From assembly GCA_037133755.1 (NCBI GenBank), contig JBAXNN010000002.1:26595-90594 (forward strand): a stretch of 64,000 nt of DNA. The letters run 5' to 3'. Below, one piece after another: positions 46,578-64,000 of this stretch. Both the position numbers and the translations under genes were made by a program. The stretch comes from Thermoleophilia bacterium (GTDB lineage: Bacteria; Actinomycetota; Thermoleophilia; Gaiellales; F1-60-MAGs149). The notes under the pieces were generated by a model that saw nothing but the letters and a program-made list of their open reading frames with translations, had not been told where the DNA came from and did not search any database. Within the stretch, counting starts at the first letter, position 1, and every line of letters starts with the position of its first letter.

Positions 46578-48035
46578 CTACGAGACCGTGCCGTCCAGGA
46601 TCTGGAGCGTCTTCAGGTCCGAGTAGAAGTCGAGCGCGAAGTCGCCGCCCTCACGGCCGATGCCGCTGATGCCCGCGCCGCCGAAGGGGGCGGTGAGATC
46701 ACGCACCAGGAAGCAGTTGACCCAAAAGGTGCCAGCGCGCACGGTGCGGCCGATGCGGTCAGCACGCTCGGCGTCGGAGGTGAAGAGGATGCCGGACAGG
46801 CCGTACTCGGTCGAGTTGGCGAGCGCGACGGCTTCCTCCTCGGTCGTGAACGTCTGGATCGTCAGGACGGGACCGAACACCTCGTTTTGGACGATCTCAC
46901 TGTCGTTGGACTTCGGGCGGATCAGCGTCTGCTCGTACCAGTTGCCGCCGAGCTCCGACACCTTGCCGCCACGCAGTACCTCGTCACCGTTCGCGCGAGC
47001 GCGGTCGACGAAGCCGGCGACGCGCGCCAGATGGTCGGGGTGGATCAGCGGGCTGATCGTCGTGGCGTCGTCGTGGGGATCGCCGAGCACCTGCGCATCG
47101 ACGTTCGCGTTGAAGCGCGCGAGAAAGTCGTCGACTACCGACTCCTCAATGAGCAGACGCGTGCCCGACAGGCAGACCTGGCCGGCGTCGTCGTACTGCA
47201 GCGCAGCCTTGGCCGCCGCGGCGTCAAGATCGGCGTCGGCGAAGACAATGAAGGGGTTCTTGCCACCGAGCTCGGCGGTGAAGGGCACGATGTTCTCCGC
47301 GCCGGCGCGGCCAATGTGGCGCGCGGTCTCGGGCGAGCCGGTGAAGCTGAGGCGCCGGACGCGACGATCGGTCGTGAGTGCCACACCGACTTCCTCGCCG
47401 ATGCCCTGCACGAGGTTGAAGACGCCGGGCGGGAAGCCCGCCTTGTCCACGAGGTCGAAGAGCATGGAGCACGACAGCGGCGACCACTCGGCGGGCTTGA
47501 GCACCACGGTGCAGCCGGCGGCGAGCGCCGGTGCGCACTTCCACGTGGAGAGCATGAACGGCGCATTCCACGGGGTGATCACGACGGCTGGTCCGCTCGG
47601 GTTGCGCACGACGCGGTTGGCCGTGCCGTTCGACTCCCAGACGCGCTCGCTGTACTCGCAGGCGAGGTCGGCGTAGGCGCGGAAGTTGCGGGCCCCGCGG
47701 CCAATCACGCGGGCCTTGAGCGAGCGCTCGAGCATGGCCATGTCCCAGCACTCGACCTCGGCGATGTGGTCGACGTGCTCATCGATCAGGTCGGCCAGGC
47801 GGTGCAGATACGGGGCACGCCCCTCGGGACCGAGCGCGGCCCAGGCGGGGAAGGCGCGGACGGCGGCGCTGATCGCGGCATCGGCGGTGGCGGCATCGCC
47901 GCGACACACCTCGGCCAGCAGCGAGCCGTCGATCGGCGACCGGTCTTCGAACGTCGCGGCACTGCCAACACGGGCGCCATCGATGTAGTGCTCGGGCGAG
48001 ACGGTGTGGCCGTGGACGTCGACGCGGTTGCTCAC
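46578..48035 (-). CDS. NAD(P)-dependent aldehyde dehydrogenase (ring-fission semialdehyde dehydrogenase-like)
   Basis: The GTG start at 48035 overlaps the upstream stop as GTGA. It contains ITPWNAPFMLSTWK, ELGGKNP and GQVCLSGTR (the catalytic Cys context). It resembles the HpaE/XylG class. Confidence 0.85.
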   Translation of the reverse strand: MSNRVDVHGHTVSPEHYIDGARVGSAATFEDRSPIDGSLLAEVCRGDAATADAAISAAVRAFPAWAALGPEGRAPYLHRLADLIDEHVDHIAEVECWDMAMLERSLKARVIGRGARNFRAYADLACEYSERVWESNGTANRVVRNPSGPAVVITPWNAPFMLSTWKCAPALAAGCTVVLKPAEWSPLSCSMLFDLVDKAGFPPGVFNLVQGIGEEVGVALTTDRRVRRLSFTGSPETARHIGRAGAENIVPFTAELGGKNPFIVFADADLDAAAAKAALQYDDAGQVCLSGTRLLIEESVVDDFLARFNANVDAQVLGDPHDDATTISPLIHPDHLARVAGFVDRARANGDEVLRGGKVSELGGNWYEQTLIRPKSNDSEIVQNEVFGPVLTIQTFTTEEEAVALANSTEYGLSGILFTSDAERADRIGRTVRAGTFWVNCFLVRDLTAPFGGAGISGIGREGGDFALDFYSDLKTLQILDGTVS

Positions 48036-48841
48036 GCGTCGCCTCGCAGGTCGGTGATGGTCTCGAGGTCGTTCACCGAGTACGCGAATGTGAAGCGATA
48101 GCCCTTGCCGACCTTGACCGGCGCGAGCGCGATGTGCTCCTCGTTGGGGGCATCGCCGAACGACAGCGTGGCGTCGCCCTCCCAGATCGCGGAGATCGAG
48201 CGATCGTACGACTTGGCGCGCACGAGCTCGTGCACGGCGGGCGTCTCGTGCGTGCCCTCGGCCAGCTGCGGAAAGTGGCGGCGATTGACCAGCGGCGGCG
48301 CGTTGTGCTCGGGGCCGCCGGCGCTCTCGCCCGTCAGCTTGACGGTGGCTTCGATCAGACGGCGATCGTTTGCGGCCATCGTGCACCCAAACGTCGAGCC
48401 AGCGGCGATCGCCGGGTCGGCGAGCGTGCCGAGGCCGAAGGTGCGCGTCATCCAGACCGAGCCGAGCTTCTTCGGGAAGCCCTGGATCCAGCCGCGCACG
48501 AGCGCGAAGTCGCGATCAACCCAGATGTAGGGGCACGTCGTGACGTGCTCGTCGCCGAGCATGCCGTTGACGACGATGAACGCCTCCTTGTACTGGCTGC
48601 GCGCCGGATCGATCAGCTCGTTCTGGTCGGTCACGCAGGACTGCCAGTCGGCGAAGATCACCGCGGCACGGCCCGGATCGGCCGCGTACGGCTCGATGCC
48701 GGGCGGCAGCACCGCCGCGACGGCTGCCGGGTCGGCCCAGTAGTCCACAACGACGAAGTCGCCGACGTAGTGCCACGGGGGCGACGGCACCAGGCTCGCG
48801 CTGCCGGTGGGGGATAGGGGGAGGCTGTAGCCCTTGCTCAT
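48032..48841 (-). CDS. Acetoacetate decarboxylase (ADC)-family protein
   Basis: 269 aa with PPWHYVGDF and VRGWIQGFPKKLG. The latter aligns with the Schiff-base lysine region (YPKKLG) of clostridial Adc. Confidence 0.65.
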   Translation of the reverse strand: MSKGYSLPLSPTGSASLVPSPPWHYVGDFVVVDYWADPAAVAAVLPPGIEPYAADPGRAAVIFADWQSCVTDQNELIDPARSQYKEAFIVVNGMLGDEHVTTCPYIWVDRDFALVRGWIQGFPKKLGSVWMTRTFGLGTLADPAIAAGSTFGCTMAANDRRLIEATVKLTGESAGGPEHNAPPLVNRRHFPQLAEGTHETPAVHELVRAKSYDRSISAIWEGDATLSFGDAPNEEHIALAPVKVGKGYRFTFAYSVNDLETITDLRGDA

Positions 48842-48857
48842 GTGATCTCCTCGCGGC

Positions 48858-50162
48858 TCAGACGTGATCCGCGTACTCGGTCCATTCCCATTCGGTGACG
48901 ACGCGGGCGAAGCGGTGCAGCTCGCGCCGCTTCACGTCGACGACGGTGCGCACCATGCGCTCGCCGAGCGCATCGGCGATGATCGTGTCGGCCTCGAGCG
49001 CGTCGAGTGCTGCCCCGAGATCCTGCGGTAGCGCGACCGGGTCGCCGATCGCCAGTCCGCGCTCGATGCCATCGCGGCCGGCAGCCAGCGCGGCGGTGAG
49101 CAACAGGTACGGGTTCGCAGAGGCATCGCCGATGCGCAGCTCGACGCGCGTGGCGTCGCCGTTCTGCGGCGGCACACGCAGGTACGCGGTGCGGTCATCG
49201 CCGCCCATGTCGGCCTGCAGCGGCGCGAGCCCGATGTTGGCGTTGGCGAGGCGCTTGAACGAGTTGATCGTGGGGCACGCGAGTGCCGTCAGCGCCTGCG
49301 CGTGCACGATCAGGCCGGCGGCGAAGGCGCGACCGATCTCCGACAGGCCGCCCTCGGGCTGCGCGAAGGCGTTGCCTGCGTCGTTCCAGAGCGAGAGGTG
49401 GATGTGATGGCTCGAGCCCTCAGCGTCGGCGAACGGCTTGCCCATGAAGTTCGCTCGTAGTCCGTTGCGTCCCGCGGTCTCGCGGACGACCTCCTCGAAG
49501 AGGAAGACGCGGTCCGTCGCATCGAGTGCCTCGCCGTGGTTGAGGTTCAGCTCGAACTGGCCGGGCGAGACCTCGCGATGCGCGGCCGTGACGCCGAGGC
49601 CCATGGCCACGCAGGCGTCCTGCGTGGCACGGAGCACACCGTTGGGGTCGGCCGCCCAACCGGAGGTGTAGGCCAGACCGACGCCGGGCGAGTAGCGCCC
49701 GACGGACGGTCCCGAGCCCGGCTCGAGCAGATAGAACTCGGGCTCCGACGCGGACACCGCGCGATAGCCATGTGCCTGCAATCGTGCGAGCTCGGCCTTC
49801 AGGAGCGAGCGCACGCAGAGACCAGACGGCACGTGGCCGGGGTCCACGACGTCGGCGAGGATCCACGCGGTCTGCGGATCCCACGGCACCTGCCGCGCGG
49901 TGCTGGCGTCGGGCACGGAGTGCGTATCGGGTAGGCCGATGCCGCCGGGATGCGGCGCGTCCATCAGCGGCTCACCGTCGAGGCCCTCGACGAGACTGGC
50001 CTCGCAGTAGCCGATACCGCTCGCGAGCTCGGGCAGCGACGACAGCGGGTAGTCCTTGCTGCGCGGGCGCCCGTGCGGATCCGCGTGGATCACGCGCACG
50101 CGCGTAATGCCCTGCGCAGCCAGCGAGTCGCGCAGGGTGGTGAGTGCGGCGGTGTCGGTCAT
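48858..50162 (-). CDS. Glutamine synthetase-like gamma-glutamyl ligase family protein
   Basis: 434 aa with SEPEFYLLEP, GSSHHIHLSLW, NSFKRL and RVELRIGDASANPYL. Confidence 0.8.
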   Translation of the reverse strand: MTDTAALTTLRDSLAAQGITRVRVIHADPHGRPRSKDYPLSSLPELASGIGYCEASLVEGLDGEPLMDAPHPGGIGLPDTHSVPDASTARQVPWDPQTAWILADVVDPGHVPSGLCVRSLLKAELARLQAHGYRAVSASEPEFYLLEPGSGPSVGRYSPGVGLAYTSGWAADPNGVLRATQDACVAMGLGVTAAHREVSPGQFELNLNHGEALDATDRVFLFEEVVRETAGRNGLRANFMGKPFADAEGSSHHIHLSLWNDAGNAFAQPEGGLSEIGRAFAAGLIVHAQALTALACPTINSFKRLANANIGLAPLQADMGGDDRTAYLRVPPQNGDATRVELRIGDASANPYLLLTAALAAGRDGIERGLAIGDPVALPQDLGAALDALEADTIIADALGERMVRTVVDVKRRELHRFARVVTEWEWTEYADHV

Positions 50163-50165
50163 CGA

Positions 50166-51098
50166 TTAGTCGGCGAGCGGGGGCAGCGGCGTGCCCTGCG
50201 CCTCGAGCTGGTGGCGCTCCGAGTGCACGGCGGCCTCGTCGAAGCGGAAGTACGAGCGCGGCGGCAGGACGCCCCACGTGTTGGATCCCCAGGCGTCGTC
50301 GGCCCACTCGCGGGGCGTGTGCGGGAGGCGCAAGATCTCCATGTCGCAGTAGAGCTCGACGAAGAGGTTCTCCTCGGGGATGCGCACGTAGGCGCAGAGG
50401 TTGCGCGCGAGGTTGTGATGCACGGGACCCCAGCCGAGCCAGCGGCCGTGGCGACCGAGGTGGTCGAGGAACACGCGCAGCTGACCCCAATCAACGATGT
50501 CGAACGCGATGTGGTGGAAGTGCGCCGGGCCCATGCCGACGATCGCCATCTGGTGGTGCTCGGGATGCACGTGCAGCCACACGCCGGCCTCGCCGAGCTT
50601 GTCGGACACGTGCATGCCCATCACGTCGGTGTAGAACGTGGTCGTCTCGGCCAGGTTGGGCGCGAGGATGTTGACGTGGCCGAGGCGGCGCGGGTGCATG
50701 CCGAAGGGCGGTGCGGTCCGGCGTCCGGCGTCGGGCCAGAGCTCGATCGCCGAGCGCTCGCGGAACGGCATCAGCTGCAGGCCGCTGCCGGAGGGGTCGG
50801 CAAACCGCAGCGAGCCGTCGGGCTCCCGGGTGTACGAGACGTTGCAGGCGTCGAGGTGCTTGGCCGCCTCGTCGAGCGAGCAATCCTCGGCGAGCTCCCA
50901 CGCGCTGTGGTCGTGATCGGCCTCGGCGTCCTGCACGAGCTCGAGGCAGTAGTCCTCCGAGTCGCAGCGCAGCAGCGAGCGGCCGGGCTCCTTCGCAACG
51001 ACCTCGAGCCCGAACTGCACCGACCAGCGGGCGGTTGCCTCATCGAGGTCCAGCACGCGCAGACACGCGTGGTGCAGGTCATGGATGCGGATGCTCAT
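50166..51098 (-). CDS. Two-domain VOC-superfamily extradiol ring-cleavage dioxygenase-like protein
   Basis: 310 aa with two glyoxalase-like modules. Candidate metal ligands are in LGHVNI, HFHHIAF and FVELYCD. Confidence 0.7.
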   Translation of the reverse strand: MSIRIHDLHHACLRVLDLDEATARWSVQFGLEVVAKEPGRSLLRCDSEDYCLELVQDAEADHDHSAWELAEDCSLDEAAKHLDACNVSYTREPDGSLRFADPSGSGLQLMPFRERSAIELWPDAGRRTAPPFGMHPRRLGHVNILAPNLAETTTFYTDVMGMHVSDKLGEAGVWLHVHPEHHQMAIVGMGPAHFHHIAFDIVDWGQLRVFLDHLGRHGRWLGWGPVHHNLARNLCAYVRIPEENLFVELYCDMEILRLPHTPREWADDAWGSNTWGVLPPRSYFRFDEAAVHSERHQLEAQGTPLPPLAD

Positions 51099-51099
51099 C

Positions 51100-51957
51100 T
51101 CATACCTCCCCGGCGGCGACGCGCCGTTCGGCTTCGTCCTCGGGAATCGCCAGCGCGACGTGCAGGGTGTTCGCTGAGGTCTCGGGCTGGTCGCCTGGAC
51201 CCGTCAGGTCGACATTCCAGTCGACCACGGTGTTGCGCAGTGCGGGGAAGCCCGCGATCTCGACCTCGACGACGTCGCCGACCTCCATCGGGCGCGAGTT
51301 GGCCGGGGTGCCGGTCAGCACGACGTCGCCCGGCACCAGCGTGATCACGCGGCACAGGTCGGCGAGCTGGTAGCGGTAGTCCCAAATCAGGTCGTCGGCG
51401 TCGCCTTGCTGCACGATCTCGCCGTTGACGCGCGTCGTCAGCGTGAAGCCATCGTCGGGCGTCCACTGGTCGGCGGTGATCATCGCCGGGCCGATCGGCA
51501 GGAAGCCGTCCTGGCCCTTGACGCGCAGCATCGAGCCGCGGTCGGCGTGGCGGAAGTCGTGCAGGCCCACGTCGTTGGCGGGCGCGAAGCCGGCCACGTA
51601 CTTGTGCACGTGCTCGGCCTTCACGCCCTTCATCTCGCGCCCGACGACGACGGCGATCTCGCCCTCGTAGTTGAGGAACTGCGTGCCGTGCGGACGGCGC
51701 AGCTCGCCGAGGTGCCCGTTGAGCGTGGTGGGGGGCTTCATGAAGTAGGACGGCTCAGGCGGCGTGTTGGCCTTGTACTCGGTCAGGCGCGACTGGTAGG
51801 TGAGGTGCACGGCGATGATCTTCGTCGGCTCGACCGGCGCCAGCCAATGCGCGTCCGCGGAAGCGACCTCAGTGCCGTTCTCGAGAAGGACGACACCGTC
51901 GTCCTTCAGCTCGCCCCAATGGGGCTCACCGTTATGGAGGATGCGGACGCGCAGCAT
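51100..51957 (-). CDS. Fumarylacetoacetate hydrolase (FAH)-family isomerase/decarboxylase/hydrolase
   Basis: The start is taken at MLRVRILHNGEPHWGEL. It contains YEGEIAVVVGR, GFAPANDV, KGQDGFLPIGP and GDVVLTGTP. Confidence 0.8.
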   Translation of the reverse strand: MLRVRILHNGEPHWGELKDDGVVLLENGTEVASADAHWLAPVEPTKIIAVHLTYQSRLTEYKANTPPEPSYFMKPPTTLNGHLGELRRPHGTQFLNYEGEIAVVVGREMKGVKAEHVHKYVAGFAPANDVGLHDFRHADRGSMLRVKGQDGFLPIGPAMITADQWTPDDGFTLTTRVNGEIVQQGDADDLIWDYRYQLADLCRVITLVPGDVVLTGTPANSRPMEVGDVVEVEIAGFPALRNTVVDWNVDLTGPGDQPETSANTLHVALAIPEDEAERRVAAGEV

Positions 51958-52082
51958 CAGACTGCCTCGCCGATCGACGTCTTGGTGCTGATGCGGTCCA
52001 TGTGCCCCTCCCGGCCGGACTCCCGGCGCATCCGGGATCCTAGGTCTCCTGCGGCGTGCATACGGAGCAGCGCCGGTAATTC

Positions 52083-52099
52083 TGGATACTGTATCCAAT
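52083..52099. promoter_or_regulatory. Candidate operator TGGATACTGTATCCAAT in the divergent promoter region 51958..52221
   Basis: TGGATAC-T-GTATCCA is a perfect 7+7 inverted repeat. A near-identical 17-mer recurs at 59145..59161. Confidence 0.35.
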
Positions 52100-52221
52100 T
52101 TGACGCGTGATGGGAACCCCGTGCGTCATGCTCCTGCCAGCGGTTCGGAGGGATTCGCGGGAGCGCCGCGAAGGAGCCGCGAGATCCACGCCCTATGGGG
52201 CGCAAGCAAGGGGGAGCACAT

Positions 52222-53661
52222 ATGGGCGCGCAAGCGCAGGGAGGCGAGAAGCTCGGTAAGGGCAATCTCAGCCTGCTCGATGTCATCGCACAGTCGATCG
52301 GGTTCATCGGACCCGTCTTCGCAGCTGCGTTCTTCATTCCGACCATCGTCGGCGCTTCGCTGAACGGCAAGGGCGCCGGACTCGCGAGTCCGGTCTCGAT
52401 CATCATCGCGATGATCGGCATGTGCGCCGTCGCGTGGATCATCTCGCGTTTCGCGCGCCGCATCCATGCCGCCGGCTCGCTGTACGACTACGTCACCGAG
52501 GCGTTCGGCGAGCGCATTGGCTTTGTCGGCGGCTGGGTCTACTACGGCGGCGTGATCGCCCTGACCCTCGCCATTGGTCTGGCGTTCGGCGGCTTCCTGC
52601 ACGACACGCTGTTCTTTAACCACGACATCAACATCGCGTGGTACTGGCTGTCGATTGCCTTCTGGATCGTCGCGGGGCTGATGATGCTGCGGGGCGTGGC
52701 GATCTCGACGCGTGTGCAGCTCGTGCTCGGTCTCGGCTCGTTCCTGATCATCCTGATCTTCTCGATCTGGGTGATCATCAAGGTCGGTGGCGACGGCGGC
52801 CTCAGCGCCCAGCCGTTCAATCCGAGCTCGTCGGATCAGGGCTGGAACGGCATCTTCTTCGGAATTCTCTACGCCGTGATCATGTTCATCGGCTTTGAGT
52901 CCTCCGCGAACCTTGCCGAGGAGACGAGTAACCCACGCAAGCACCTGCCGCTCGCGATCTTCGGCTCGTGCATCGCCGTGGGTGTGTTCTACGTGATCGT
53001 GACGTACGCCCAGGCCGTCGGCTTTGGCCTCTCGGTGCAGGCATGGCTCGAGGCCTTCCCGCCGCTCTACGCGCTGGCCGCCGATCCGAACTACGGCAGC
53101 ACGGGCTTCGGCGAGCTGATCCAGTGGCTCGTCGTGATCGACATCGCGGCCGTCGGTCTCGGTACCGCGACCGGCTCGAGCCGCGGTATCTTCGCCCTCG
53201 CGCGTGACGGTCGTCTGCCGTCCTTCCTTGCGAAGGTGCATCCCAAGTACAAGACGCCATACGTTGCCTCGACCGTCCTCGCGATCGCCTCGATCATCCT
53301 GATCGCGATTGTCGCCTGGACGAACGGCCTGATGAGCGTGGGCGAGATGGATCCGGGCGAGTGGTTCCCGATGTTCAACTGGCTCGCGACCTTCGGTGGC
53401 TTCATGATGATCGCCGTCTACATCGCGATCTGCGTGGCCGCGTTCAAGGGTATGCCTGGCGAGTCGAGCGGTCTGCTCGCCTTGGCCGGCATCGTCGGCG
53501 GTCTCGTCTCGATCGGCGCGATCTACGGCGTGATCGTCCAGTACGCCGACATCCCGGCCTACAACCGCGTGTGGTGGATCGCGGTGCTGTGGCTGGTGGG
53601 TGGCGTGATCATCATGCTGATCCTCAATCAGATGGGCCGTCTGCGCAACAAGACGGTCTAG
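52222..53661 (+). CDS. APC-superfamily amino acid/amine permease
   Basis: About 480 aa, polytopic, with LSLLDVIAQSIGFIGPVF and GFESSANLAEE. I prefer the ATG at 52222, which follows GGGGGAG. An alternative start is at 52195. Confidence 0.8.
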   Translation: MGAQAQGGEKLGKGNLSLLDVIAQSIGFIGPVFAAAFFIPTIVGASLNGKGAGLASPVSIIIAMIGMCAVAWIISRFARRIHAAGSLYDYVTEAFGERIGFVGGWVYYGGVIALTLAIGLAFGGFLHDTLFFNHDINIAWYWLSIAFWIVAGLMMLRGVAISTRVQLVLGLGSFLIILIFSIWVIIKVGGDGGLSAQPFNPSSSDQGWNGIFFGILYAVIMFIGFESSANLAEETSNPRKHLPLAIFGSCIAVGVFYVIVTYAQAVGFGLSVQAWLEAFPPLYALAADPNYGSTGFGELIQWLVVIDIAAVGLGTATGSSRGIFALARDGRLPSFLAKVHPKYKTPYVASTVLAIASIILIAIVAWTNGLMSVGEMDPGEWFPMFNWLATFGGFMMIAVYIAICVAAFKGMPGESSGLLALAGIVGGLVSIGAIYGVIVQYADIPAYNRVWWIAVLWLVGGVIIMLILNQMGRLRNKTV

Positions 53662-53748
53662 CTCGACGCACGCGGAGGGGCCCGGGGCTTCGGCTCCGGG
53701 CCCCTCTTTGCGTTTCGGGGGAGCGGCCTGCAGCGGTACGCTTCCGCC

Positions 53749-54948
53749 GTGGCCATCAACGCCGACCCCGTGATCGACCCGGAACGCCGTCAGCGATTGC
53801 TCGACATCGTCGACGAGATCGGTCCTGCCTTCCTCGAGCGCGCGCCGAAGTACGACCGCGAGGCGTCGTTCCCGTTCGAGAACTTCGACGATCTCTACGA
53901 CGTCGGCTTCTACGGGCTCTGCATCCCGACGCGCTACGGCGGCCTCGGCGCGAGCTTCAACGACTACATGCACATCGGCGCGGCCATCGGTGCCTACTGC
54001 CCGATGACGGCGCTGACCTTCAACATGCACACGCAGACCGTCCTCTGGACGGGCGTCGCGGCCGACGACCTCGACATGAGCGACGAACACCGTGCCGCGC
54101 ACGAGACCCTGCGCGCCGAGCTCTATCGCCGGATCATCGAGGAGAAGGCGCTGCAGTCGCAGCCGCTCAGCGAGGGCATCGCGCAGGGCGCCACGCGCGG
54201 CTTTGCGACGACGGCCGAGAAGGTCGACGGCGGCTACAAGGTCAACGGTCGCAAGATCTTCGCCTCGCTGTCGGGCGCAGCCTCTGACTACAACATCACC
54301 TGCGTCGAGACGAGCGAGGACGAGATCCTCTTCCTCGCGATCGCGGCCGACGATCCGGGCGTCGAGATCGTCGGCGACTGGGATCCGCTCGGCATGCGCG
54401 GCACGGTCTCGCGCACGCTGCTCTTCAAGGACGCCTTCGCGCCGGACGACGCAGTGCTGCTGCCGCCGGGCATCTACAACCAGCTGGCCGAGCGCTGGCC
54501 GTACGTCTACATGACGCTGACGCCTGCCTACATGGGCCTGTCGAAGGCCGTCGTCGATTTCGTGCGCGACTACATGTCCTCGCAGGCGCCTCCCGGTGTC
54601 ACGTCGCGCCGCGAGGTACCCCAGAAGCAACAGGGTTGGGCCGAGCTGCAGATCATGTACGAGAAGAGCCGCGCGCTGTTCGACAAGGTCGTCGACGAGG
54701 CGCGCGTCGATCCGACGCCCGACATGGTGGCGCGCGCGCTGGCCGCGAGCTTCACGACGATGGAGACCGCGCCCGAGCTCGCCTCGTTGGCGATCCGCAC
54801 GTGCGGCGGCCTGTCGATGCTCAAGGAATTCCGGCTCGAGCAGTACTACCGCGATGCCCGCTGCGGCTCGCTGATGCTGCCGTGGAGTGCCGAGGTCTGC
54901 CTGCATCGCCTGGGCCAGCACGGCATCTTCCCCGACGACGCGGCGTAG
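53749..54948 (+). CDS. Acyl-CoA dehydrogenase-fold flavoenzyme (possibly a group-D-like oxygenase)
   Basis: 399 aa with GYKVNGRKIFASL, DPLGMRGT and EQYYRDARCGSLM. It starts at a GTG. Confidence 0.7.
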   Translation: MAINADPVIDPERRQRLLDIVDEIGPAFLERAPKYDREASFPFENFDDLYDVGFYGLCIPTRYGGLGASFNDYMHIGAAIGAYCPMTALTFNMHTQTVLWTGVAADDLDMSDEHRAAHETLRAELYRRIIEEKALQSQPLSEGIAQGATRGFATTAEKVDGGYKVNGRKIFASLSGAASDYNITCVETSEDEILFLAIAADDPGVEIVGDWDPLGMRGTVSRTLLFKDAFAPDDAVLLPPGIYNQLAERWPYVYMTLTPAYMGLSKAVVDFVRDYMSSQAPPGVTSRREVPQKQQGWAELQIMYEKSRALFDKVVDEARVDPTPDMVARALAASFTTMETAPELASLAIRTCGGLSMLKEFRLEQYYRDARCGSLMLPWSAEVCLHRLGQHGIFPDDAA

Positions 54949-54949
54949 T

Positions 54950-55738
54950 GTGATTCGCGACGTCGACGAGGCGCCGATCGCCTGGCGCGAGGCGGGCGAG
55001 GGGCCACTCGTGCTGTTTCTGCACGGCCTCGGTGCGACGCGGACCAGTTGGGACGCCCAGCTCGATGCCCTCGCCGACGGCTACCGCTGCGTGGCGTGGG
55101 ACGTGCCCGGCTACGGGTGCTCCGAGCCGCTTGCCGACTTCTCGCTGGAGGCCGCCGCCGACGCCGCCGCCGCGCTGATCGATCGACTCGGTGGCAGCGC
55201 CCACATCGTCGGGCTCTCGATGGGCGGCATGATCGCGCTGCAGCTCGCGCTCCGGCATCCCGCTGTCGTGCGGTCGCTGGCGATCGTCGACTCGAGCCCG
55301 GCCTTCGGCATGGATGGCACCGACCCGGACGAGTGGCGTGCCGCCCGGCTGGCGCCGCTCGACGCCGGCGCGCAGGTTCCCGACTTCGCCGAGCCCGTGC
55401 TGCGTGGCGTGATGGGTCCGAACGTGTCCGACGAGGCCGTCGCGGCGGCGGTCGCGTCGATGCTGCGCGTCCCGCTCGCCGGACTGCGGCAGACGATCGC
55501 CGCGCTGCCCGGACACGACGTCCGCGCGCGCCTTGGCGACATCGCCGCGCCCACGCTCGTGGTCGTCGGCGAGCTCGACGAGGAGACGCCGCCTGCCTAC
55601 TCCGAGGCGATCGCGGCGGGCATCCCCGGCGCGCGTCTCGAGGTGATCGCCGGAGCCGGGCACTACACGTCGTTCGAGGCGCCCGACGCGCTCAACCGGC
55701 TGCTGCGCGATCATCTCGACATGGTGGAGGCCGCCTGA
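54950..55738 (+). CDS. Alpha/beta hydrolase, NicD (N-formylmaleamate deformylase)-like by context
   Basis: 262 aa with LVLFLHGLG, the nucleophile elbow GLSMGG and GAGHYTSFE. It has an ATGA overlap with the next gene. Confidence 0.65.
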   Translation: MIRDVDEAPIAWREAGEGPLVLFLHGLGATRTSWDAQLDALADGYRCVAWDVPGYGCSEPLADFSLEAAADAAAALIDRLGGSAHIVGLSMGGMIALQLALRHPAVVRSLAIVDSSPAFGMDGTDPDEWRAARLAPLDAGAQVPDFAEPVLRGVMGPNVSDEAVAAAVASMLRVPLAGLRQTIAALPGHDVRARLGDIAAPTLVVVGELDEETPPAYSEAIAAGIPGARLEVIAGAGHYTSFEAPDALNRLLRDHLDMVEAA

Positions 55739-56766
55739 TGGAGCACCGCACGCTCGACGTCTTCCGCCGCGCCCTCGTGGCGAGCGGCCTCACCGCCGGC
55801 GAGGTCGTCGCCGTGCTCAGCGAGTCCGGCAGCCGCGCTGCGCTCGTGGATGCCGCACGGCTCGCCGCCGAGGATCTCGGCGGCCGTGTCGTCGACGTGC
55901 GCATGCCGACGCCTGCCAACCCCGGCCCGGTCGCGATTCGTTCGACCGGCTCGAGCATCGCGCTTCAGGGCAATCCCGCGGCGATCGCCGCGCTCTGCGC
56001 CGCCGACCTCGTGCTCGACTGCACCGTCGAGGGCCTGCTGCACGCGCCCGAGCTGCCCGCCATTCTGAGCGCCGGCTCGCGCGTGCTGATGATCCCCAAC
56101 GAGGATCCCGAGGCCTTCGAGCGTTGGGCGCCGGACGACGGGGCATTGAAGGCACGCGTGCTGGCCGGCCTCGAGCGTCTGCGTGCCGCCGACGCGATGC
56201 ACGTCACCTCGCCGGCCGGCACCGACCTGCGCGTCGCCCTCGCCGGCGCCTTCACGGCCGGCTCGTGGGGCTCGACGGATGGCCCGGGCACGATCGCGCA
56301 CTGGCCGGGCGGCCTCGTCGTCGCGTTCCCCGCCGCGTACTCCGTGGAGGGCACGCTCGTGCTCGCGCCGGGCGATGCGAATCTCACCTTCAAGGAGTAC
56401 CTGCGCGAGCCGGTGCGTCTGACGATCGCGGGCGACCGCATCACGGCGATCGACGGCGACAATCTCGACGCCGATCTGCTGCGCTCGTATCTCGCCGCGT
56501 TCGACGAGGAAGAGGCGTACAGCGTGAGTCACGTCGGCTGGGGCATGAACCCCGCCGCGCGCTGGGATGCTCTCGTGATGGTCGACAAGCGCGAGACCAA
56601 CGGCATCGAGCTGCGCGCCTTCGAGGGGAATTTCCTCTTCTCGACGGGCGCCAACGAGAACGCTGGCCGCTTCACGCGCGGCCACTTCGACTTCCCGATG
56701 CGCCACTGCACCGTGCGCCTCGACGGCGAGACCGTGGTCGATGCCGGCCGCGTTGTCGGCGGCTAG
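55738..56766 (+). CDS. NicX-like (M29 aminopeptidase-fold) 2,5-dihydroxypyridine 5,6-dioxygenase family protein
   Basis: 342 aa. HWPGGLVVAFP...EGTLVL...SHVGWGMNP...RAFEGNFLFSTGANE...HFDFPMRHCTV is colinear with Pseudomonas putida NicX as I recall it. Confidence 0.7.
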   Translation: MEHRTLDVFRRALVASGLTAGEVVAVLSESGSRAALVDAARLAAEDLGGRVVDVRMPTPANPGPVAIRSTGSSIALQGNPAAIAALCAADLVLDCTVEGLLHAPELPAILSAGSRVLMIPNEDPEAFERWAPDDGALKARVLAGLERLRAADAMHVTSPAGTDLRVALAGAFTAGSWGSTDGPGTIAHWPGGLVVAFPAAYSVEGTLVLAPGDANLTFKEYLREPVRLTIAGDRITAIDGDNLDADLLRSYLAAFDEEEAYSVSHVGWGMNPAARWDALVMVDKRETNGIELRAFEGNFLFSTGANENAGRFTRGHFDFPMRHCTVRLDGETVVDAGRVVGG

Positions 56767-57533
56767 CGCGCCTGGAGGATCTCGCGTATCTGCCCGGCGG
56801 TCGCGCCGTGACGCATCAGCCAGGCGTGGGCGCGCCTACGAGCGCCGGCATCGCTGGCCGCCGTGGGGTAGCGGCGGCGCACCTGGCGCTCGAGCTCGTC
56901 CATGTCGGCGGGCGGCTTGGTCTTTTCGGCCTCGCCGGCAACTTCGGAGGCGAGACGCCCGGCGAGCTGCGGGCTGAATCCACGGCGGGCGAGGAACCCG
57001 TAGGCACGTGAGCGGCTGCTCGCCGTACTCGGCCGGGCCTCGAGCAGTCGTCGCGCCTCGGCCTCCTCGTCGAAGTCGGCGTAGGCCTCCTCGACCGCAG
57101 AGGTGATGTCGGCATCGGCGAAGCCCTGCTTGCGCAGGCGCTGTTGCGTCGAGAACGGCGCCTGGCCCGCATCGCGAAAGCGTCGAGCGCGCGTGGCGGC
57201 GAGCACGCGGTCGTTGAGCGCGCCGAGCTCCGCGCAGCGGTCGAGCGTGCGCTCGGCCACCGCTTCGTCGAAGCCCTTGCGCTTGAGGCGGTCGCGCATC
57301 TGCCCGCGCGACGCCATCCGGAAGTCGAGCGACCGGATTGCGTAGCTGAGTGCAGCGGCGGTGTCGCGCTGCTGCTCAAGTCGAGTACGGCGCGCGTCGT
57401 CGAGCTCGCTGCCGAGGTGCAGGTCCTCATCGACGACGAGCGAGGCCGGCAGCGTCGTCCAGTACGCGCCATCGAGATGCACCTTCACGGACGGCTTGCC
57501 GTTGACGGCCGCCAGTCGCGTGATCTTGGACAT
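56763..57533 (-). CDS. recX: RecX-family regulatory protein-like
   Basis: The start is taken at MSKITRLAAVNG. It has repeated three-helix modules (RGQMRDRLKRKGFDEAVAERTLDRCAELGALND, QQRLRKQGFADADI, YGFLARRGFSPQL). Confidence 0.6.
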   Translation of the reverse strand: MSKITRLAAVNGKPSVKVHLDGAYWTTLPASLVVDEDLHLGSELDDARRTRLEQQRDTAAALSYAIRSLDFRMASRGQMRDRLKRKGFDEAVAERTLDRCAELGALNDRVLAATRARRFRDAGQAPFSTQQRLRKQGFADADITSAVEEAYADFDEEAEARRLLEARPSTASSRSRAYGFLARRGFSPQLAGRLASEVAGEAEKTKPPADMDELERQVRRRYPTAASDAGARRRAHAWLMRHGATAGQIREILQAR

Positions 57534-57558
57534 TTTGGGCCCGGCCCCAGAATGACCG

Positions 57559-57596
57559 AAAAAACGACAATTTGGGGCCGGCCCCAAAATGACCGC
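57559..57596 (-). terminator. Candidate intrinsic terminator after the AsnC-like gene
   Basis: The minus strand reads TAG-gcggtca-TTTGGGG-CCGG-CCCCAAA-TTGTCGTTTTTT. This is a GC-rich stem, a 4-nt loop and a U-rich tail. Confidence 0.5.
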
Positions 57597-59073: not shown

Positions 59074-59144
59074 GTTCGGCCTCCTGTGGGGTGCAAGCGT
59101 ACGCGAATGACGGGGGGTGCCTCTTGACACCTTCGGAGAACGAT

Positions 59145-59161
59145 TGGATACTGGATCCAAT
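59145..59161. promoter_or_regulatory. Candidate operator TGGATACTGGATCCAAT in the divergent promoter region 59074..59183
   Basis: It matches the 52083..52099 motif at 16 of 17 positions. It extends to the palindrome ATTGGAT-actgg-ATCCAAT. A TTGACA-like hexamer lies at 59124. Confidence 0.35.
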
Positions 59162-59183
59162 CTGCTCTGGAGGATCGTTTCCG

Positions 59184-60650
59184 ATGGCTGCAACCGAGAC
59201 TAGTTCCAACGTGGCGGCGCGCACCGGCGCCGAATTCCTCGAGGGTCTGCGCAACGACAAGGATCGCGAGATCTGGATCGGCGGCGAGTGCGTCACGAAC
59301 CCGATGGATCACGAGTTCCTGGCCACGGGTGCCGAGGCGATCGCGCGCGTCTTCGACACGCAGCACGAGCACGCCGAGGTCTGCCTCGCGCCGAATCCCG
59401 ATGACGGCCGCCTCGTCAACCGCACGCACCTGATCCCGCGCAGCAAGGACGATCTCGAGAAGCGCCGTGCGTCGATGGAGATCATCGCGGGCGCGACGGG
59501 CGGGATGATGGGCCGCGTCCCCGACTACCTCAACGTGACGTTCGCCTGCTTCGCCGGAGCGTCGGAGGTGTGGGCGCGCCGCGGCAACGAGCGCGGCGCG
59601 GAGAACATCGTCAACTACCAGAAGCTGATGCGCGATCGGGATCTCTCGACGACGCACGCGATCATGAATCCCGTCGCTGACCGCTCGAAGTCGGATGCCC
59701 AGCAGATGGGCGGCGAGATCTCCCTGCACAAGGTTGGCGAGTGCGCGGAGGGCATCATCGTCCGTGGCGCGCGCATGCTCGCGACCCTCGCGCCGTTCGC
59801 CGACGAGATCTCGGTCTATCCCGGCTCGCCCCTGCAGGAGGGTGACGAGGCCTACGCGCTTGCGTTCGCGCTGCCGATGTCGACGCCGGGCCTGCGGTTC
59901 ATCTGCCGCGATTCGTTCGCGAAGCCGAAGAGCACCTTCGACTACCCGTTGAGCGCGCGCTTTGACGAGATGGACGCCGTCGTGATCTTCGACGACGTCG
60001 TCGTGCCCTGGGATCGCCTCTTCCTCGACGGCGATCTCGAGGGTTACGACGAGGTCATCACCGACTCCGGCTGGCGTGGCCACATCATGCACCAGGCCTT
60101 CACCCGGTCCTACGTGAAGCTGATGTTCGCGTTCGGGCTCGGCCACGCGATGGCGCAGACCACGGGCGTGGCGCGCTTCGACCACATCCAGGAGAAGCTC
60201 GGCCAGATCTGGAACATGACCGAGCTCACGCGCTCGGCGCTCGTTGCCGCGGAGGCCGATTCGTTCCTCGACAACCACGGCGTCTGGTATCCGCATGATC
60301 GCCCGCTGATGGCGCTGCGCGGCGAGATGCCGAAGTGGCTGCCCCGTACGCACGAGCTGCTGCAGCTGATCGGCGGCGGGTCGTTCATGGCGACCCCGTC
60401 CGAGGCCGACTTCAACTCGGCGATCCGCGGCGACATCGAGAAGTACTTCCAGGCCGCCGGTGGCAACGCCGAGCAGCGTGTACGCATCTTCCGTCTCGCG
60501 TGGGACTTCATCGGCTCCGACCTCGGCGGGCGCAGCGAGCTCTACGAGCGCTTCTACCTGTCGGACTCGTGGCGGATGACGCAGCTGGCCTACCGCACGG
60601 CGGACACCACGTTCGCCGAGTCGCTGGTCGACCAGTTCATGCACGACTAA
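59184..60650 (+). CDS. HpaB-family (4-hydroxyphenylacetate 3-monooxygenase-like) flavin-dependent oxygenase component
   Basis: The start is at MAATETSSNVAARTGAEFLEGLRND, preceded by GGAGGA. It is 488 aa with GGMMGRVPDYLN and NPVADRSK. The length and N-terminus are typical of the HpaB family. Confidence 0.8.
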   Translation: MAATETSSNVAARTGAEFLEGLRNDKDREIWIGGECVTNPMDHEFLATGAEAIARVFDTQHEHAEVCLAPNPDDGRLVNRTHLIPRSKDDLEKRRASMEIIAGATGGMMGRVPDYLNVTFACFAGASEVWARRGNERGAENIVNYQKLMRDRDLSTTHAIMNPVADRSKSDAQQMGGEISLHKVGECAEGIIVRGARMLATLAPFADEISVYPGSPLQEGDEAYALAFALPMSTPGLRFICRDSFAKPKSTFDYPLSARFDEMDAVVIFDDVVVPWDRLFLDGDLEGYDEVITDSGWRGHIMHQAFTRSYVKLMFAFGLGHAMAQTTGVARFDHIQEKLGQIWNMTELTRSALVAAEADSFLDNHGVWYPHDRPLMALRGEMPKWLPRTHELLQLIGGGSFMATPSEADFNSAIRGDIEKYFQAAGGNAEQRVRIFRLAWDFIGSDLGGRSELYERFYLSDSWRMTQLAYRTADTTFAESLVDQFMHD

Positions 60651-60833: not shown

Positions 60834-63800
60834 GTGAACCCGAATCGCCGTTCGATCTTCCTTCGTAGCGGTGTGGCGGCGACGGCGCTGGTGGGCGCGG
60901 CCTTCATTGCGGGTCCGGCTGCTGCGGCTGAGCAGGGAGCAGCGGTCGACGCGTCGACGTCGCGCGTGGCGCGTGCCACGGGCGAGGTGCCTCAGACGCT
61001 GCCCGACTTCCGTGCGCTGATCTCGAGCGAGGCCGGCTGTGTCGCCAACGCCGAGTACATGGCCCGTCACCTGCAGTGGTCGGTCAACAGTCCGCGTGTC
61101 AGCCAGAGCACGGTCGTGCGCGTGATCGCGCGTATCAAGCGGGCGTCGGCGCCGTGCAACAACTTGCTGTTTCGCAACGGCAATCGGGTGCATCCCGATG
61201 CCGGCATCCTGACGGGCAACGGCTTCAGCTTCAAGGCAGCCACCTGCACTGGCGCCGAGGCATGCGACGGCGGTAACGGCGGCCTGCTGATGGGTTCCGG
61301 TGGCAACGGCGCCAACGGCGGTGACGGCGGCGACGCCGGCTGGTACAGCGGTCGTGCCGGCAACGGCGGCGACGCGGTTGTGGCAGGCCAAGACGGCGGC
61401 GACGGCGGCCGCGCCGGTCGCGTCGGCGCGGGCGGCAATGGCGGCGCTGGCCTGGAGAGCGGCGACGGCGGCAATGGCGGCAGGGGCGGCCTCCTGAGCG
61501 GCAACGGCGGCAATGGCGGTAACGGCGGCAGCGCGACGACGGCGGGCCAGGCTGGTGGCGATGGCGGCGCCGGTGGTCGTGCCGTGGCGAAGAAGGGCGT
61601 CGGCGGCCGCGGCGGGGCAGGCGGGGCAGGCGCGGCAGGCGCCGCGGGGGCGACCGGCACAACCGGGTCCGGTGTCGGGGTCGCTGGCGGAACCGGTGGC
61701 AACGGCGGTAACGGTGGCAGCGGTGGCAACGGTGGTGCTGGCGGCAGTGCACCCAAGGGAGTCGCAGGCAACGGCGGCGCCGGCGGTGCTGCGGGCAACG
61801 CAGGCAACGGCGGTGCAGGCGGTGCGGGCTACGACGGCGTCACAGCCGGCGAGAACGGCTCGAGCGGCGGCACGGGCGGCCTGTCCGGCACGCCGGGCGC
61901 AGCGGGCAAGGGTGGCGCCGCGGGTGCCGGCGCAGCCGCAGGTTCCGCTGGCGCGGCAGGTGACGCCGCGTCGGTCGCCGTCGCGGGTGCTGGCGGTCGA
62001 GGCGGCAACGGCGCTGGAGCACTTGCCAACGTCGCGGGTGCCAGTGGTGGCAACGGCGGCACAGGTGGTGCCGCCACGGGCAGTGGTCGCGCGGGTGCCG
62101 GCGGCATTGGCGGCAACGGCGGCGCTGGCGGTACCGGCACGGCGGGTACGCTGACGGCAGTAGCCGGTGTCGGCAAGGCCGGCGGTAGCGGTGGCAACGG
62201 CGGTACCGGCGGTGTGGCGGCTACGGGAGTGGCCGGAGCTGGCGGGGTTGGCGGTAACGCAGGCGTAGGTGGTACCGGTGGCGCCGGATTCAACGGCGTT
62301 GGCGCCAATGGCGCCAACGGTGGTGCAGCGGGCGCGGCAGGTAACGGCGGCACCGGAGGAGCGACCACGTCGGGTACCGCCGGCGTTGGCGGTGCCGGCG
62401 GCGACGGCGCACGCGGTGGCAGTGGCGGCCTTGGCAATCTCGGGGGTAACGGCGGCAACGGTGGAGCGGCAGGTGCTGGCGGTGCCGGTGGTTCGGGCGG
62501 CAGTGCGGCCTCCGGAGGCACCAACGGCAACGGCGGCGCAGGCGGCAATGGCGGTGCCGGCGGATCCGGAGCCAACGGCGGCGCCGGTGACCCAATCGCA
62601 GGTGCTACGGCGAACGGTGGCAATGGCGGCAACGGCGGAGCCAGTGCCGCAGCTGGTACGGGAGGTTCCGCTGGTAGCGGTGGTATCGGTGGCGCGAGCG
62701 GCGCCAGTGGTACCGCTGCCACTGCGAGCAACGGCGGCAACGGCGGTGCTGGCTGGGACTCGACTGTCGCGGGCGTGGCGGGCGGCGTGGGTGGTAACGG
62801 CGGTGATGTTGGTAGCGGTGCGGGTGGTAGCGGCGGTAACGGTGGTGCCGGGGGCGCCGGCTTCGTCGGCGTTGACGCAACCGCCTTGGCCGCCGCGTCG
62901 GCGGGTACGAGCGGGGGTAGCGGAGGTGCCGGGGGTGCATCAACGAGCGGCAATGGTGGCGCGGGTGGCGCGGGTGGCGCGGGTGGCGCCGGTGGCGACG
63001 GCCTCGTCGGCGGTGCGCAGGCGCTTGCAAGCGGCGAGGCCGGCGGTACTGGTGGCGCGGGTGGCGCTGGCGGTTCAGTGAGGACAGGGATCGCCGGCAA
63101 TGGCGGCGCGGGCGGAGGAGCCGGCGCAGGCGGCGACACCGCTGTCGGCGCGTCTGGTGTGATCGGACAGGTCGGCGGTCCGGGCCGCAGCGGCGGCGCG
63201 GGCGGCGCTGGTGGAGACGCGACGGGTGGCCGTGCGGGCAACGGCGGCGCTGGCGGTGCTGGAAGCACCGGAGGCGCGGGCGGCGGGTCCAACCTCAGCG
63301 GCAACTCCGGCGGCAACGGCGGTGCCGCGGGTGCCGGCGGGGCCGGCGGTCCTGGCGGAAATGCGGCCGGCACCAACGGAAATGGCGGCAATGGAGGTAG
63401 GGCCGGCAACGGCGGCGCAGGTGGCGCGGGCTTGGCTGGCACGCTTGGCAATGCGGGTACGTCGGGCGGCGCGGGTGGCTCGGCCACTGCTGCCCCCGGC
63501 GCCGCAGGCGCAGCAGGTTCTGGCGCCGGCTCGGCGGGCACTGCGGGCACCGCTGGTGCCTACGGCAATGGTGGCGCGGGCGGCGCTGGCGGCGCTGGCT
63601 TCGTCGGCGTCGATGCCACGAACGCAAGCGCTTCCGTGGCTGGTACCAGCGGTGGCAGTGGCGGTGCCGGCGGCGATGCGACCGGTGGGAACGCGGGTAA
63701 CGGCGGCAACGGTGGCAACGGCGGCAACGGCGGCAACGGCTTTTCGCCCGTGGCCAATCCCGGTGGGTCGAATGGTGGCAGCGCTGGTAGCGGCGGCGCT

Positions 63801-64000
63801 GGCGGCGCTGCGACAACAGGCTCCGGTGGTAACGGCGGTGCCGCCGGCACCGCGGGCAATGGCGGTAACTCGCTTGGCGGCTCTGCGAGCGGCGGTGCTG
63901 CAGGCAGCGGTGCCGCTGGCGGCGCGGGTGGTACGAGCAGCGGCAGCGGCGGCAACGGTGGCAACGGCGGTAACGGTTCGTCTGGCGGTAACGGCGGCAC
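60834..64000 (+). CDS. Large secreted glycine-repeat (PGRS-like) protein, partial; continues beyond the window
   Basis: The frame is open from GTG 60834 (GGAG lies 7 nt upstream) to the window end, more than 1055 codons, so it is not in the ORF track. The N-terminus VNPNRRSIFLRSGVAATALVGAAFIAGPAAAAEQ looks like a Tat/Sec signal. A four-Cys domain follows, then continuous GGxGGxGG repeats (GGNGGLLMGSGGNGANGGDGG...). Confidence 0.75.
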   Translation, partial: MNPNRRSIFLRSGVAATALVGAAFIAGPAAAAEQGAAVDASTSRVARATGEVPQTLPDFRALISSEAGCVANAEYMARHLQWSVNSPRVSQSTVVRVIARIKRASAPCNNLLFRNGNRVHPDAGILTGNGFSFKAATCTGAEACDGGNGGLLMGSGGNGANGGDGGDAGWYSGRAGNGGDAVVAGQDGGDGGRAGRVGAGGNGGAGLESGDGGNGGRGGLLSGNGGNGGNGGSATTAGQAGGDGGAGGRAVAKKGVGGRGGAGGAGAAGAAGATGTTGSGVGVAGGTGGNGGNGGSGGNGGAGGSAPKGVAGNGGAGGAAGNAGNGGAGGAGYDGVTAGENGSSGGTGGLSGTPGAAGKGGAAGAGAAAGSAGAAGDAASVAVAGAGGRGGNGAGALANVAGASGGNGGTGGAATGSGRAGAGGIGGNGGAGGTGTAGTLTAVAGVGKAGGSGGNGGTGGVAATGVAGAGGVGGNAGVGGTGGAGFNGVGANGANGGAAGAAGNGGTGGATTSGTAGVGGAGGDGARGGSGGLGNLGGNGGNGGAAGAGGAGGSGGSAASGGTNGNGGAGGNGGAGGSGANGGAGDPIAGATANGGNGGNGGASAAAGTGGSAGSGGIGGASGASGTAATASNGGNGGAGWDSTVAGVAGGVGGNGGDVGSGAGGSGGNGGAGGAGFVGVDATALAAASAGTSGGSGGAGGASTSGNGGAGGAGGAGGAGGDGLVGGAQALASGEAGGTGGAGGAGGSVRTGIAGNGGAGGGAGAGGDTAVGASGVIGQVGGPGRSGGAGGAGGDATGGRAGNGGAGGAGSTGGAGGGSNLSGNSGGNGGAAGAGGAGGPGGNAAGTNGNGGNGGRAGNGGAGGAGLAGTLGNAGTSGGAGGSATAAPGAAGAAGSGAGSAGTAGTAGAYGNGGAGGAGGAGFVGVDATNASASVAGTSGGSGGAGGDATGGNAGNGGNGGNGGNGGNGFSPVANPGGSNGGSAGSGGAGGAATTGSGGNGGAAGTAGNGGNSLGGSASGGAAGSGAAGGAGGTSSGSGGNGGNGGNGSSGGNGG

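Follow-up and report, generated by a model that had tools for sequence, protein, structure and literature searches.

NicX is the founding member of a class of ring-cleaving Fe(II) dioxygenases with one known substrate, 2,5-dihydroxypyridine (2,5-DHP), which the 2021 paper on the NicX structure gave as the sole substrate reported for the family (PMC7910607). In that enzyme the Fe(II) is bound by His265, Ser302, His318 and Asp320, the last of which is positioned by Arg293, a gate is formed by Leu104 and His105, and N1-H and O2 of 2,5-DHP are hydrogen-bonded by Glu177 and His189; the E177A mutant has 2.7% of its activity left (PMC7910607). Genuine nicotinate (nic) clusters encode NicX together with a hydroxylase of the NicC or HpaB type, the α/β-hydrolase NicD (triad S101/D125/H245; PMC3831237), NicE of the Asp/Glu racemase family and NicF of the isochorismatase family. 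Here we describe a NicX-like gene in a 64,000-nucleotide (nt) stretch of DNA (hereafter the window) from a Thermoleophilia bacterium of the Gaiellales (assembly GCA_037133755.1, contig JBAXNN010000002.1, positions 26,595–90,594). Gene calling, for which third-codon-position GC was used because the G+C content of the window is ~70%, and a listing of open reading frames (ORFs) placed at this locus four genes on the same strand, encoding an APC permease, a protein with the acyl-CoA dehydrogenase (ACAD) fold, an α/β-hydrolase and the 342-amino-acid (aa) NicX-like protein. An earlier reading of the sequence (the original prediction) had proposed that these genes degrade a pyridine-ring compound via 2,5-DHP.

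Our preferred interpretation, held with middling confidence, is that the ACAD-fold, hydrolase and NicX-like genes (the trio) constitute a hydroxylate-cleave-hydrolyse operon of the NicC/NicX/NicD kind, directed at a nitrogen-containing aromatic compound that is related to 2,5-DHP but is probably not 2,5-DHP itself. The ACAD-fold protein, supplied with reduced flavin by a separate reductase, would hydroxylate an aromatic or heteroaromatic ring, the NicX-family dioxygenase would open the ring beside the new hydroxyl, and the PcaD-like serine hydrolase would remove the resulting acyl, imide or lactone group; an amidase, a glutamine synthetase-like (GS-like) ligase and the permease would account for uptake and nitrogen handling. 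The logic of hydroxylase, Fe(II) ring fission and α/β-hydrolase, encoded together, is shared with the NicC-NicX-NicD core and its pic, hpa and VPP equivalents. However, two of the three window enzymes are non-orthologous to those of the nic core, the dioxygenase alone being homologous to its counterpart, and the isochorismatase-type maleamate amidase and maleate isomerase are absent. In place of the nic partners, the recurrent neighbours are GS-like ligases, P450s, nitrilase-superfamily or amidase-signature amidases and APC permeases. The homology, the metal site, the operon arrangement, the synteny and the lack of nic partners are observations; the order of the reactions, the class of substrate and the parts played by the amidase and the GS-like ligase are inferred.

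The window exemplifies a large sister clade of NicX with an intact metal centre, a rebuilt substrate pocket and conserved partners of its own, and literature searches that paired NicX (or dihydroxypyridine) with either acyl-CoA dehydrogenase or flavin reductase gave no account of an association between ACAD and NicX genes. Work on this clade could broaden the chemistry known for NicX-family enzymes and put right the names '2,5-DHP dioxygenase' and 'peptidase M29', which automatic annotation has spread widely. It could also show which nitrogenous aromatic compound is consumed by abundant uncultured freshwater and soil Actinomycetota. Direct testing is feasible because culturable carriers exist (Ensifer adhaerens W2-A and Aminobacter aminovorans KCTC 2477).

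Family assignment, metal site and substrate pocket

In a phmmer search the 342-aa protein matched Pseudomonas putida NicX (PDB 7CN3) at E = 2.7e-62, with residues 7–340 aligned to NicX residues 10–342 and 137 of 329 positions identical (41.6%). The original prediction had described colinearity with NicX over the C-terminal half, quoting the motifs HWPGG, SHVGWGMNP, NFLFSTGANE and HFDFPMRHC; all four were found and the similarity is real, but it covers the whole protein rather than one half. The iron ligands, singled out in that prediction for checking, were all intact, as H265, S302, H316 and D318 of the window protein align with H265, S302, H318 and D320 of NicX (4/4). Also conserved were L101, H102, H188 and R293, which correspond to Leu104, His105, His189 and Arg293. 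Grouping with aminopeptidase T, which the prediction had raised as one of the findings that would speak against it, was not observed: no M29 peptidase structure matched at E < 0.01 in the PDB search, in which the only matches besides NicX were spurious ones to TAL repeats. Pfam and NCBIfam scans returned no model matching the window protein, and the Pfam family PF26233 NicX was present in the precomputed annotation of its homologues. A look-up by exact sequence gave no contig that encodes the window protein. Sequence comparison places it within the NicX family and outside the M29 aminopeptidases.

Compared to NicX, the substrate pocket showed several changes, namely Glu177 to Ser176, Val175 to Ala and Glu308 to Asn, together with replacement of the Cys76 segment by an 'RST-G' motif. 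Residue 177 of NicX from genuine nic clusters was Glu in five of six cases and Gln in the sixth, followed by a 'PGRWDH' motif, whereas Ser, Thr or Gly occupied this position in the window protein and its relatives, with Ser in 117 of the 120 nearest 90%-cluster representatives. In a neighbour-joining tree of full-length family representatives, the window clade stood apart from the clade holding all canonical NicX proteins. More than 5,800 of 8,000 scored candidates matched the window protein at E ≤ 1e-10, and most of the best 120 matches were contributed by metagenome assemblies, freshwater ones among them, and by metagenome-assembled genomes (MAGs) of Gaiellales. The window protein thus shares with NicX/Hpo of P. 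putida KT2440 and S16 the fold and family, the Fe ligand set, Arg293, the Leu104-His105 gate, His189 and an adjoining serine hydrolase gene, but differs in the pocket and in clade; its hydroxylase partner has the ACAD fold, whereas that of NicX/Hpo is a group A FAD monooxygenase, and NicC, NicE and NicF are missing. A six-membered aromatic with nitrogen is the probable substrate. Since small residues have taken the place of those that bind the lactam of 2,5-DHP in NicX, this compound would be similar to 5-hydroxy-2-pyridone but would carry substituents or differ in its construction.

Proteobacteria contained a further non-canonical clade of NicX proteins, at ~10001–11020 in loci L024, L034, L035 and L039 and at 6249–7259 in L036. 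Its members carry Arg or Lys at position 175, Ala or Gly at 177 and Tyr at 189, and three of the five have His308; they probably have yet another substrate specificity. An α/β-hydrolase gene lies upstream in four of these five loci, and L034 also encodes a LysR regulator and a 561-aa group A FAD aromatic hydroxylase.

Operon structure and predicted partner enzymes

The best PDB match of the ACAD-fold protein was 5GJ7/5Z8T (E = 3e-42), followed by the nitrososynthase DnmZ, DszC/TdsC and MsuC. Its C-terminal 'YYRDARCGSLMLPWS' aligns with 'LYRDVRAGGFMHPYN' of DnmZ, and alignment to the true ACAD 1WS9 ended before the catalytic-Glu region. The protein was 40–41% identical to the products of ACAD genes adjoining NicX-like genes in Ensifer and Aminobacter, and flavin reductases are encoded in both of those clusters. 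It shares with group D flavin monooxygenases (DszC/TdsC, DnmZ, MsuC, HsaA and SadA-type) the three-domain ACAD fold, with DnmZ the C-terminal R-D-x-R-x-G-x-x-M-x-P motif, and, through its orthologous clusters, the presence of flavin reductase genes. It differs in its low identity to any characterised member, the closest structure (5GJ7/5Z8T) being without a functional name. Judged from sequence, the ACAD-fold protein is closer to a monooxygenase than to a dehydrogenase and probably supplies the oxygenase part of a two-component (group D) flavin-dependent system. A role as hydroxylase is well supported, because of the DnmZ-type C-terminal motif and the flavin reductases of the Ensifer and Aminobacter clusters, and the suggestion that this enzyme supplies the hydroxylation agrees with its being a conserved operon partner with a monooxygenase-type C-terminal motif.

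The α/β-hydrolase matched most closely the NCBIfam models for PcaD-type 3-oxoadipate enol-lactonases (174 and 151 bits, both below cut-off). Its nucleophile motif is GLSMGG, with an Asp 24 residues beyond the Ser and GAGH in the C-terminal part, and it appears to have the Ser-Asp-His α/β-hydrolase fold of NicD/Nfo. Identification of this protein as NicD did not hold up: in blastp comparisons it was 19–33% identical to NicD proteins (E = 1e-6 to 1e-9), with three of four matches spanning only ~105 N-terminal residues (25–33% identity over such a stretch), whereas NicD proteins of different phyla gave full-length mutual matches at 30–66% identity. It was 35% identical to the hydrolase of the Ensifer operon (E = 1e-33).

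The hydrolase and NicX-like genes overlap as had been described, although the junction is TGATG with 1 nt shared (stop TGA 55736–55738, start ATG 55738–55740) rather than ATGA. The likely start of the hydrolase gene is a GTG at 54950, which gives a 262-aa product and lies 2 nt past the ACAD stop codon (TAG, 54946–54948). This in-frame GTG makes the ACAD, hydrolase and NicX-like genes essentially contiguous, an arrangement predicted to form one operon. The permease appears to be an accessory upstream gene: a GC-rich, terminator-like hairpin with a 15-bp stem lies directly 3′ of it (53674–53707, plus strand) and separates it from the trio, and in four relatives (L001, L011, L015 and L018) the interval from the FAH gene to the ACAD gene lacked it. 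APC permeases were also found near the operon in Ensifer, Aminobacter and Sinorhizobium.

On the other side, recX (minus strand) overlaps the stop codon of the NicX-like gene by 4 nt at its own stop-codon end and has no adjoining recA. It lies between the NicX-like gene and the genes for the AsnC-domain protein and CN-hydrolase, and was gone from that position in L009, L010, L013 and L017.

Conserved synteny and recurrent neighbours

Synteny was compared across 39 genome loci and further contigs (numbered L001 upward), including canonical nic clusters on plasmids of Pseudomonas, Shinella, Peribacillus, Azospirillum and Embleya (L040–L042, L044 and L053). The nearest relatives of the window were freshwater Gaiellales and Thermoleophilia MAGs (82–93% identity). 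Within the Gaiellales the trio was found in L001–L018, as well as in L045–L048 and L055, where the neighbours were otherwise unrelated. It was also present in other Actinomycetota (L019, L049, L050 and L054), in a Burkholderiales MAG (L031) and on alphaproteobacterial plasmids of Ensifer, Aminobacter and Sinorhizobium (L043, L051 and L052), on which the order was NicX-like, ACAD, hydrolase, TetR, GS-like, flavin reductase and APC permease. Identity across carriers of the trio was 40–67% for the ACAD-fold protein and 32–64% for the hydrolase. In Acidimicrobiales (in the range L021–L033), only the ACAD and NicX-like genes were adjacent, with no closely related hydrolase gene adjoining; an HpaE-like aldehyde dehydrogenase (ALDH) gene there holds the place beside the ACAD gene that the hydrolase gene holds in the window operon. 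At L023 (7199–9957), the ALDH gene overlaps the ACAD start by ATGA and the NicX-like gene follows.

Several neighbours recurred and provide hints of a nitrogen-containing substrate. GS-like genes lay in or adjoining the operon in L019, L043, L049, L051, L052 and L056 and within ~4 kb of it in L023; such ligases recurred in at least six lineages. The GS-like ligase of the window matched NCBIfam models for type III GS and γ-glutamylputrescine synthetase, both below cut-off; its gene was missing in about half of the Gaiellales relatives and is a recurrent yet dispensable partner. The window CN-hydrolase, which may carry out an amide-hydrolysing step, had formamidase and aliphatic amidase as its best, weak matches, was 92–98% identical in those Gaiellales relatives that have it, and was missing from L011 and L015. 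Non-orthologous amidases, of the nitrilase superfamily or the amidase-signature family, lay near the operon in L046, L048, L055, L051 and L023. The proposal that the nitrilase-superfamily enzyme replaces NicF gains from this recurrence of several kinds of amidase. Other recurrent non-orthologous neighbours were P450s, OCD-family proteins and APC or MFS transporters. In the Burkholderiales MAG (L031, 7002–13073), genes for a 2Fe-2S and molybdenum-cofactor hydroxylase pair lie directly upstream of the NicX-like, hydrolase and ACAD genes; by analogy, this pair would fit an isoquinoline- or pyridine-type substrate, as in chemistry leading from 1-oxo-isoquinoline to phthalamate.

The CN-hydrolase of Aminobacter was considered as an orthologue of that in the window and rejected, since no similarity was detected at E ≤ 1e-5; the two are analogous at most. 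The window CN-hydrolase gene always adjoins that for a 92-aa AsnC/Lrp (RAM) protein lacking a DNA-binding domain, which was 72–99% identical in most relatives.

By tblastn, no homologue of NicC, NicD, NicE or NicF was found in the window or in ~45 non-canonical related loci, matches being confined to the canonical clusters L040–L042, L044 and L053; the absence of NicE from the window had been noted in the original prediction. An Asp/Glu-racemase ORF (5965–6816, plus strand), ~50 kb from the operon, was rejected as NicE because it showed no tblastn similarity to NicE; it may, as a guess, encode a housekeeping racemase such as MurI.

Alternative explanations of the operon

The pyridine route of the original prediction fared unevenly: membership of the NicX family, the intact Fe(II) site and the operon stood, whereas the Ser in place of Glu177, the separate clade and the missing nic partners did not agree with it. 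As a strict 2,5-DHP module, the ACAD-fold enzyme would make 2,5-DHP out of a hydroxypyridine, the NicX-like protein would convert it to N-formylmaleamate, the hydrolase would deformylate this product and the nitrilase-superfamily amidase would replace NicF. We judge this scheme unlikely. It draws on the complete NicX-type Fe site with its retained His189, the translational coupling of the hydrolase and dioxygenase genes, an AmiE/AmiF-like amidase gene 1.1 kb distant, the Mo-hydroxylase adjoining the trio in L031, the annotation of many homologues as 2,5-DHP dioxygenase by JGI, and a Ser side chain that could still hydrogen-bond the lactam. Against these stand the exchange of Glu177 for Ser, at a position where E177A leaves NicX 2.7% of its activity (PMC7910607), the loss of Glu308, the change of the Cys76 segment to 'RST-G' and the Glu or Gln found at 177 in all six NicX proteins from real nic clusters. 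In addition, the hydrolase is not a NicD orthologue, NicE and NicF never occurred near this operon type in ~45 loci and the window holds no maleate isomerase. Although conceivable, a route through 2,5-DHP to maleamate is not the account that we prefer. Loss of the lactam-recognising residue also fits a dioxygenase whose substrate is carbocyclic, either a para-diol or an aminophenol. One candidate would be a hydroxyphenylacetate derivative of the hydroquinone or homogentisate type, produced by the ACAD-fold enzyme acting as hydroxylase; the ring-fission product, a semialdehyde or lactone, would pass to the HpaE-like ALDH, FAH and ADC-like enzymes as a second entry branch of a hydroxyphenylacetate island. 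Consistent with this, in Acidimicrobiales the NicX-like gene is preceded by an HpaE-like ALDH gene that is translationally coupled to the ACAD gene, the operon and the homoprotocatechuate meta-cleavage genes share a divergent promoter region in the window and in L001, a PaaX regulator (L049) or a PaaK-like ligase (L056) adjoins, a gentisate/5-aminosalicylate dioxygenase-like cupin gene and an FAH gene lie upstream in Aminobacter, and the hydrolase is nearest to enol-lactonases. Nevertheless, we consider a carbocyclic substrate unlikely as well: no NicX-family members acting on carbocycles are known, the trio stands without a lower aromatic pathway in L045, L046, L048 and L043, the recurring GS-like, amidase, OCD and APC permease genes are left without explanation, and the Mo-hydroxylase adjoining the trio in L031 is of a type typical of N-heterocycle oxidation.

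Recurrence of GS-like ligases near the operon allows two further readings. If the NicX-like protein were an M29 peptidase-like metallohydrolase, for example one that takes off the γ-glutamyl moiety which the GS-like ligase attaches, these ligases would have the matching hydrolase that they need, and several homologues do bear the NCBI names 'peptidase M29' or 'leucyl aminopeptidase'. Such 'aminopeptidase' names are, however, also found on NicX genes of bona fide nic clusters, no M29 structure reached E < 0.01 compared with 2.7e-62 for NicX, and every residue of the mononuclear NicX ligand set is retained, the unusual Ser302 and Arg293 among them, which makes a metallohydrolase highly improbable. 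Less remote, but still speculative and quite unlikely, is that the Ser177 clade acts not on pyridones but cleaves the HO-C=C-NH-C(=O) unit of ortho-aminophenols acylated on nitrogen, for instance a γ-glutamyl-hydroxyanilide or some related γ-glutamylated arylamine. In this scheme the γ-glutamyl amide would be formed by the GS-like ligase, the ACAD-fold enzyme or a P450 would hydroxylate it and the α/β-hydrolase would split the resulting imide. A γ-glutamylated hydroxy-arylamine would account both for the partners of the GS-like and P450 kinds and for the small side chains at the lactam site; if true, arylamines would have a new route of catabolism and the NicX family its first substrate other than a pyridine.

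A nitrogen-containing aromatic handled by a NicX-like hydroxylate-cleave-hydrolyse operon remains our preferred interpretation, and we observed several points that weigh against it. The one known activity of the family is on 2,5-DHP (PMC7910607), and the hydrolase is, from its sequence, most like enol-lactonases and not deformylases. Scans of the window by tblastn and Pfam, which covered all but a few of its ORFs, revealed no flavin reductase. The missing intervening hydrolase and the ALDH-ACAD overlap in Acidimicrobiales fit a carbocyclic substrate that gives a semialdehyde. Lastly, neither the GS-like genes nor the amidases are orthologous from one lineage to another (27–34% identity or undetectable similarity), and their recurrence could be partly coincidence.

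Flanking homoprotocatechuate genes and other features of the window

Pfam assignments agreed with the permease, ACAD-fold, α/β-hydrolase, nitrilase-superfamily and HpaB-like neighbours named in the original prediction (Table 1). The divergent minus-strand genes at 46578–52098, together with HpaB, appear to encode a near-complete homoprotocatechuate-type meta-cleavage route.

Table 1. Predicted genes at and around the NicX-like operon, in window coordinates.
Predicted product	Position	Strand	Evidence
PNPOx	45028–45708	+	Pfam/NCBIfam
GntR/FCD regulator	45731–46360	+	Pfam/NCBIfam
HpaE-like ALDH	46578–48050	−	HpaE match, 492 bits
ADC/MppR-like protein	48032–48841	−	MppR match; PDB 4ZBO, E = 2e-70
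GS-like ligase, 434 aa	48858–50162	−	Pfam Gln-synt_C
Extradiol dioxygenase, HpaD/catechol 2,3-dioxygenase-like	50166–51098	−	NCBIfam/Pfam
FAH/HpaG-like protein	51100–52098	−	HpaG-C-term match
APC-family amino acid/amine permease, accessory upstream gene	52195–53661	+	Pfam AA_permease_2, 6e-35
ACAD-fold flavoprotein, 399 aa	53749–54948	+	Pfam Acyl-CoA_dh_N, _M, _1/_2
Serine α/β-hydrolase, PcaD-like, 262 aa	54950 (longest ORF from 54887)–55738	+	Pfam Abhydrolase_1, 3e-32
Homologue of the mononuclear Fe(II) dioxygenase NicX, 342 aa	55738–56766	+	PDB 7CN3 match
RecX	56763–57587	−	
Stand-alone AsnC/Lrp ligand-binding (RAM) domain, 92 aa	57597–57875	−	
Nitrilase-superfamily amidase (CN-hydrolase), AmiE/AmiF-like branch, 395 aa	57886–59073	−	Pfam CN_hydrolase, 4e-28
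HpaB-family oxygenase	59091–60650	+	Pfam HpaB_N and HpaB; TIGR02309 HpaB-1, 408 bits

The flanking genes match HpaB, an HpaD-type extradiol dioxygenase, HpaE and HpaG of the Hpa pathway. They differ from that pathway in being interleaved with the NicX-like operon, in that every NCBIfam score fell below the equivalog cut-off, and in having an MppR-like ADC-family protein, similar to PDB 4ZBO (the aldolase-dehydratase Sbi00515), where the hydratase-aldolase HpaH/HpaI would be expected; the last step may consequently be non-canonical. The HpaB-like oxygenase had been offered as an alternative pyridine hydroxylase, a role such as an HpaB-like gene has in the nic-type cluster of Peribacillus (L042), and was rejected for this role, because it was only 26% identical to that protein compared with E = 7e-100 to Thermus HpaB (PDB 2YYG). 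It fits the adjoining homoprotocatechuate genes better and is probably a 4-hydroxyphenylacetate 3-hydroxylase serving the meta-cleavage genes.

The same flanking families were observed beside ACAD/NicX-like genes in Acidimicrobiales, where a LigB-type HpaD is present, and in L049, which also has PaaX, TDO and P450 genes as neighbours. Upstream of the Aminobacter cluster lie genes for a gentisate/5-aminosalicylate dioxygenase-like cupin, an FAH protein and a nitrilase. This repeated co-location suggests a functional link between the trio and a lower aromatic pathway, but four loci (L045, L046, L048 and L043) carry the trio with no lower aromatic pathway nearby; the trio may feed such a pathway or may form a separate branch.

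The remainder of the scanned window encodes housekeeping functions, including shikimate-pathway genes, EF-P, CTP synthase, NAD kinase, AlaRS, GlyQ/GlyS, RecO and Fpg. At 61000–64000 the G+C content rises to 0.75, with a marked positive GC skew of 0.24 and an exceptionally high second-codon-position GC of 0.65–0.70; two long minus-strand ORFs there (61067–61807 and 61829–63550) had no Pfam match in a scan that reached 63550, and the stretch may encode a low-complexity or repetitive protein region. Most actinobacteria have a single-chain dimeric glycyl-tRNA synthetase. The glycyl-tRNA synthetase of the window is the two-subunit GlyQ/GlyS form (40982–44238, plus strand), although the genome has its closest relatives in Actinomycetota (Gaiellales).

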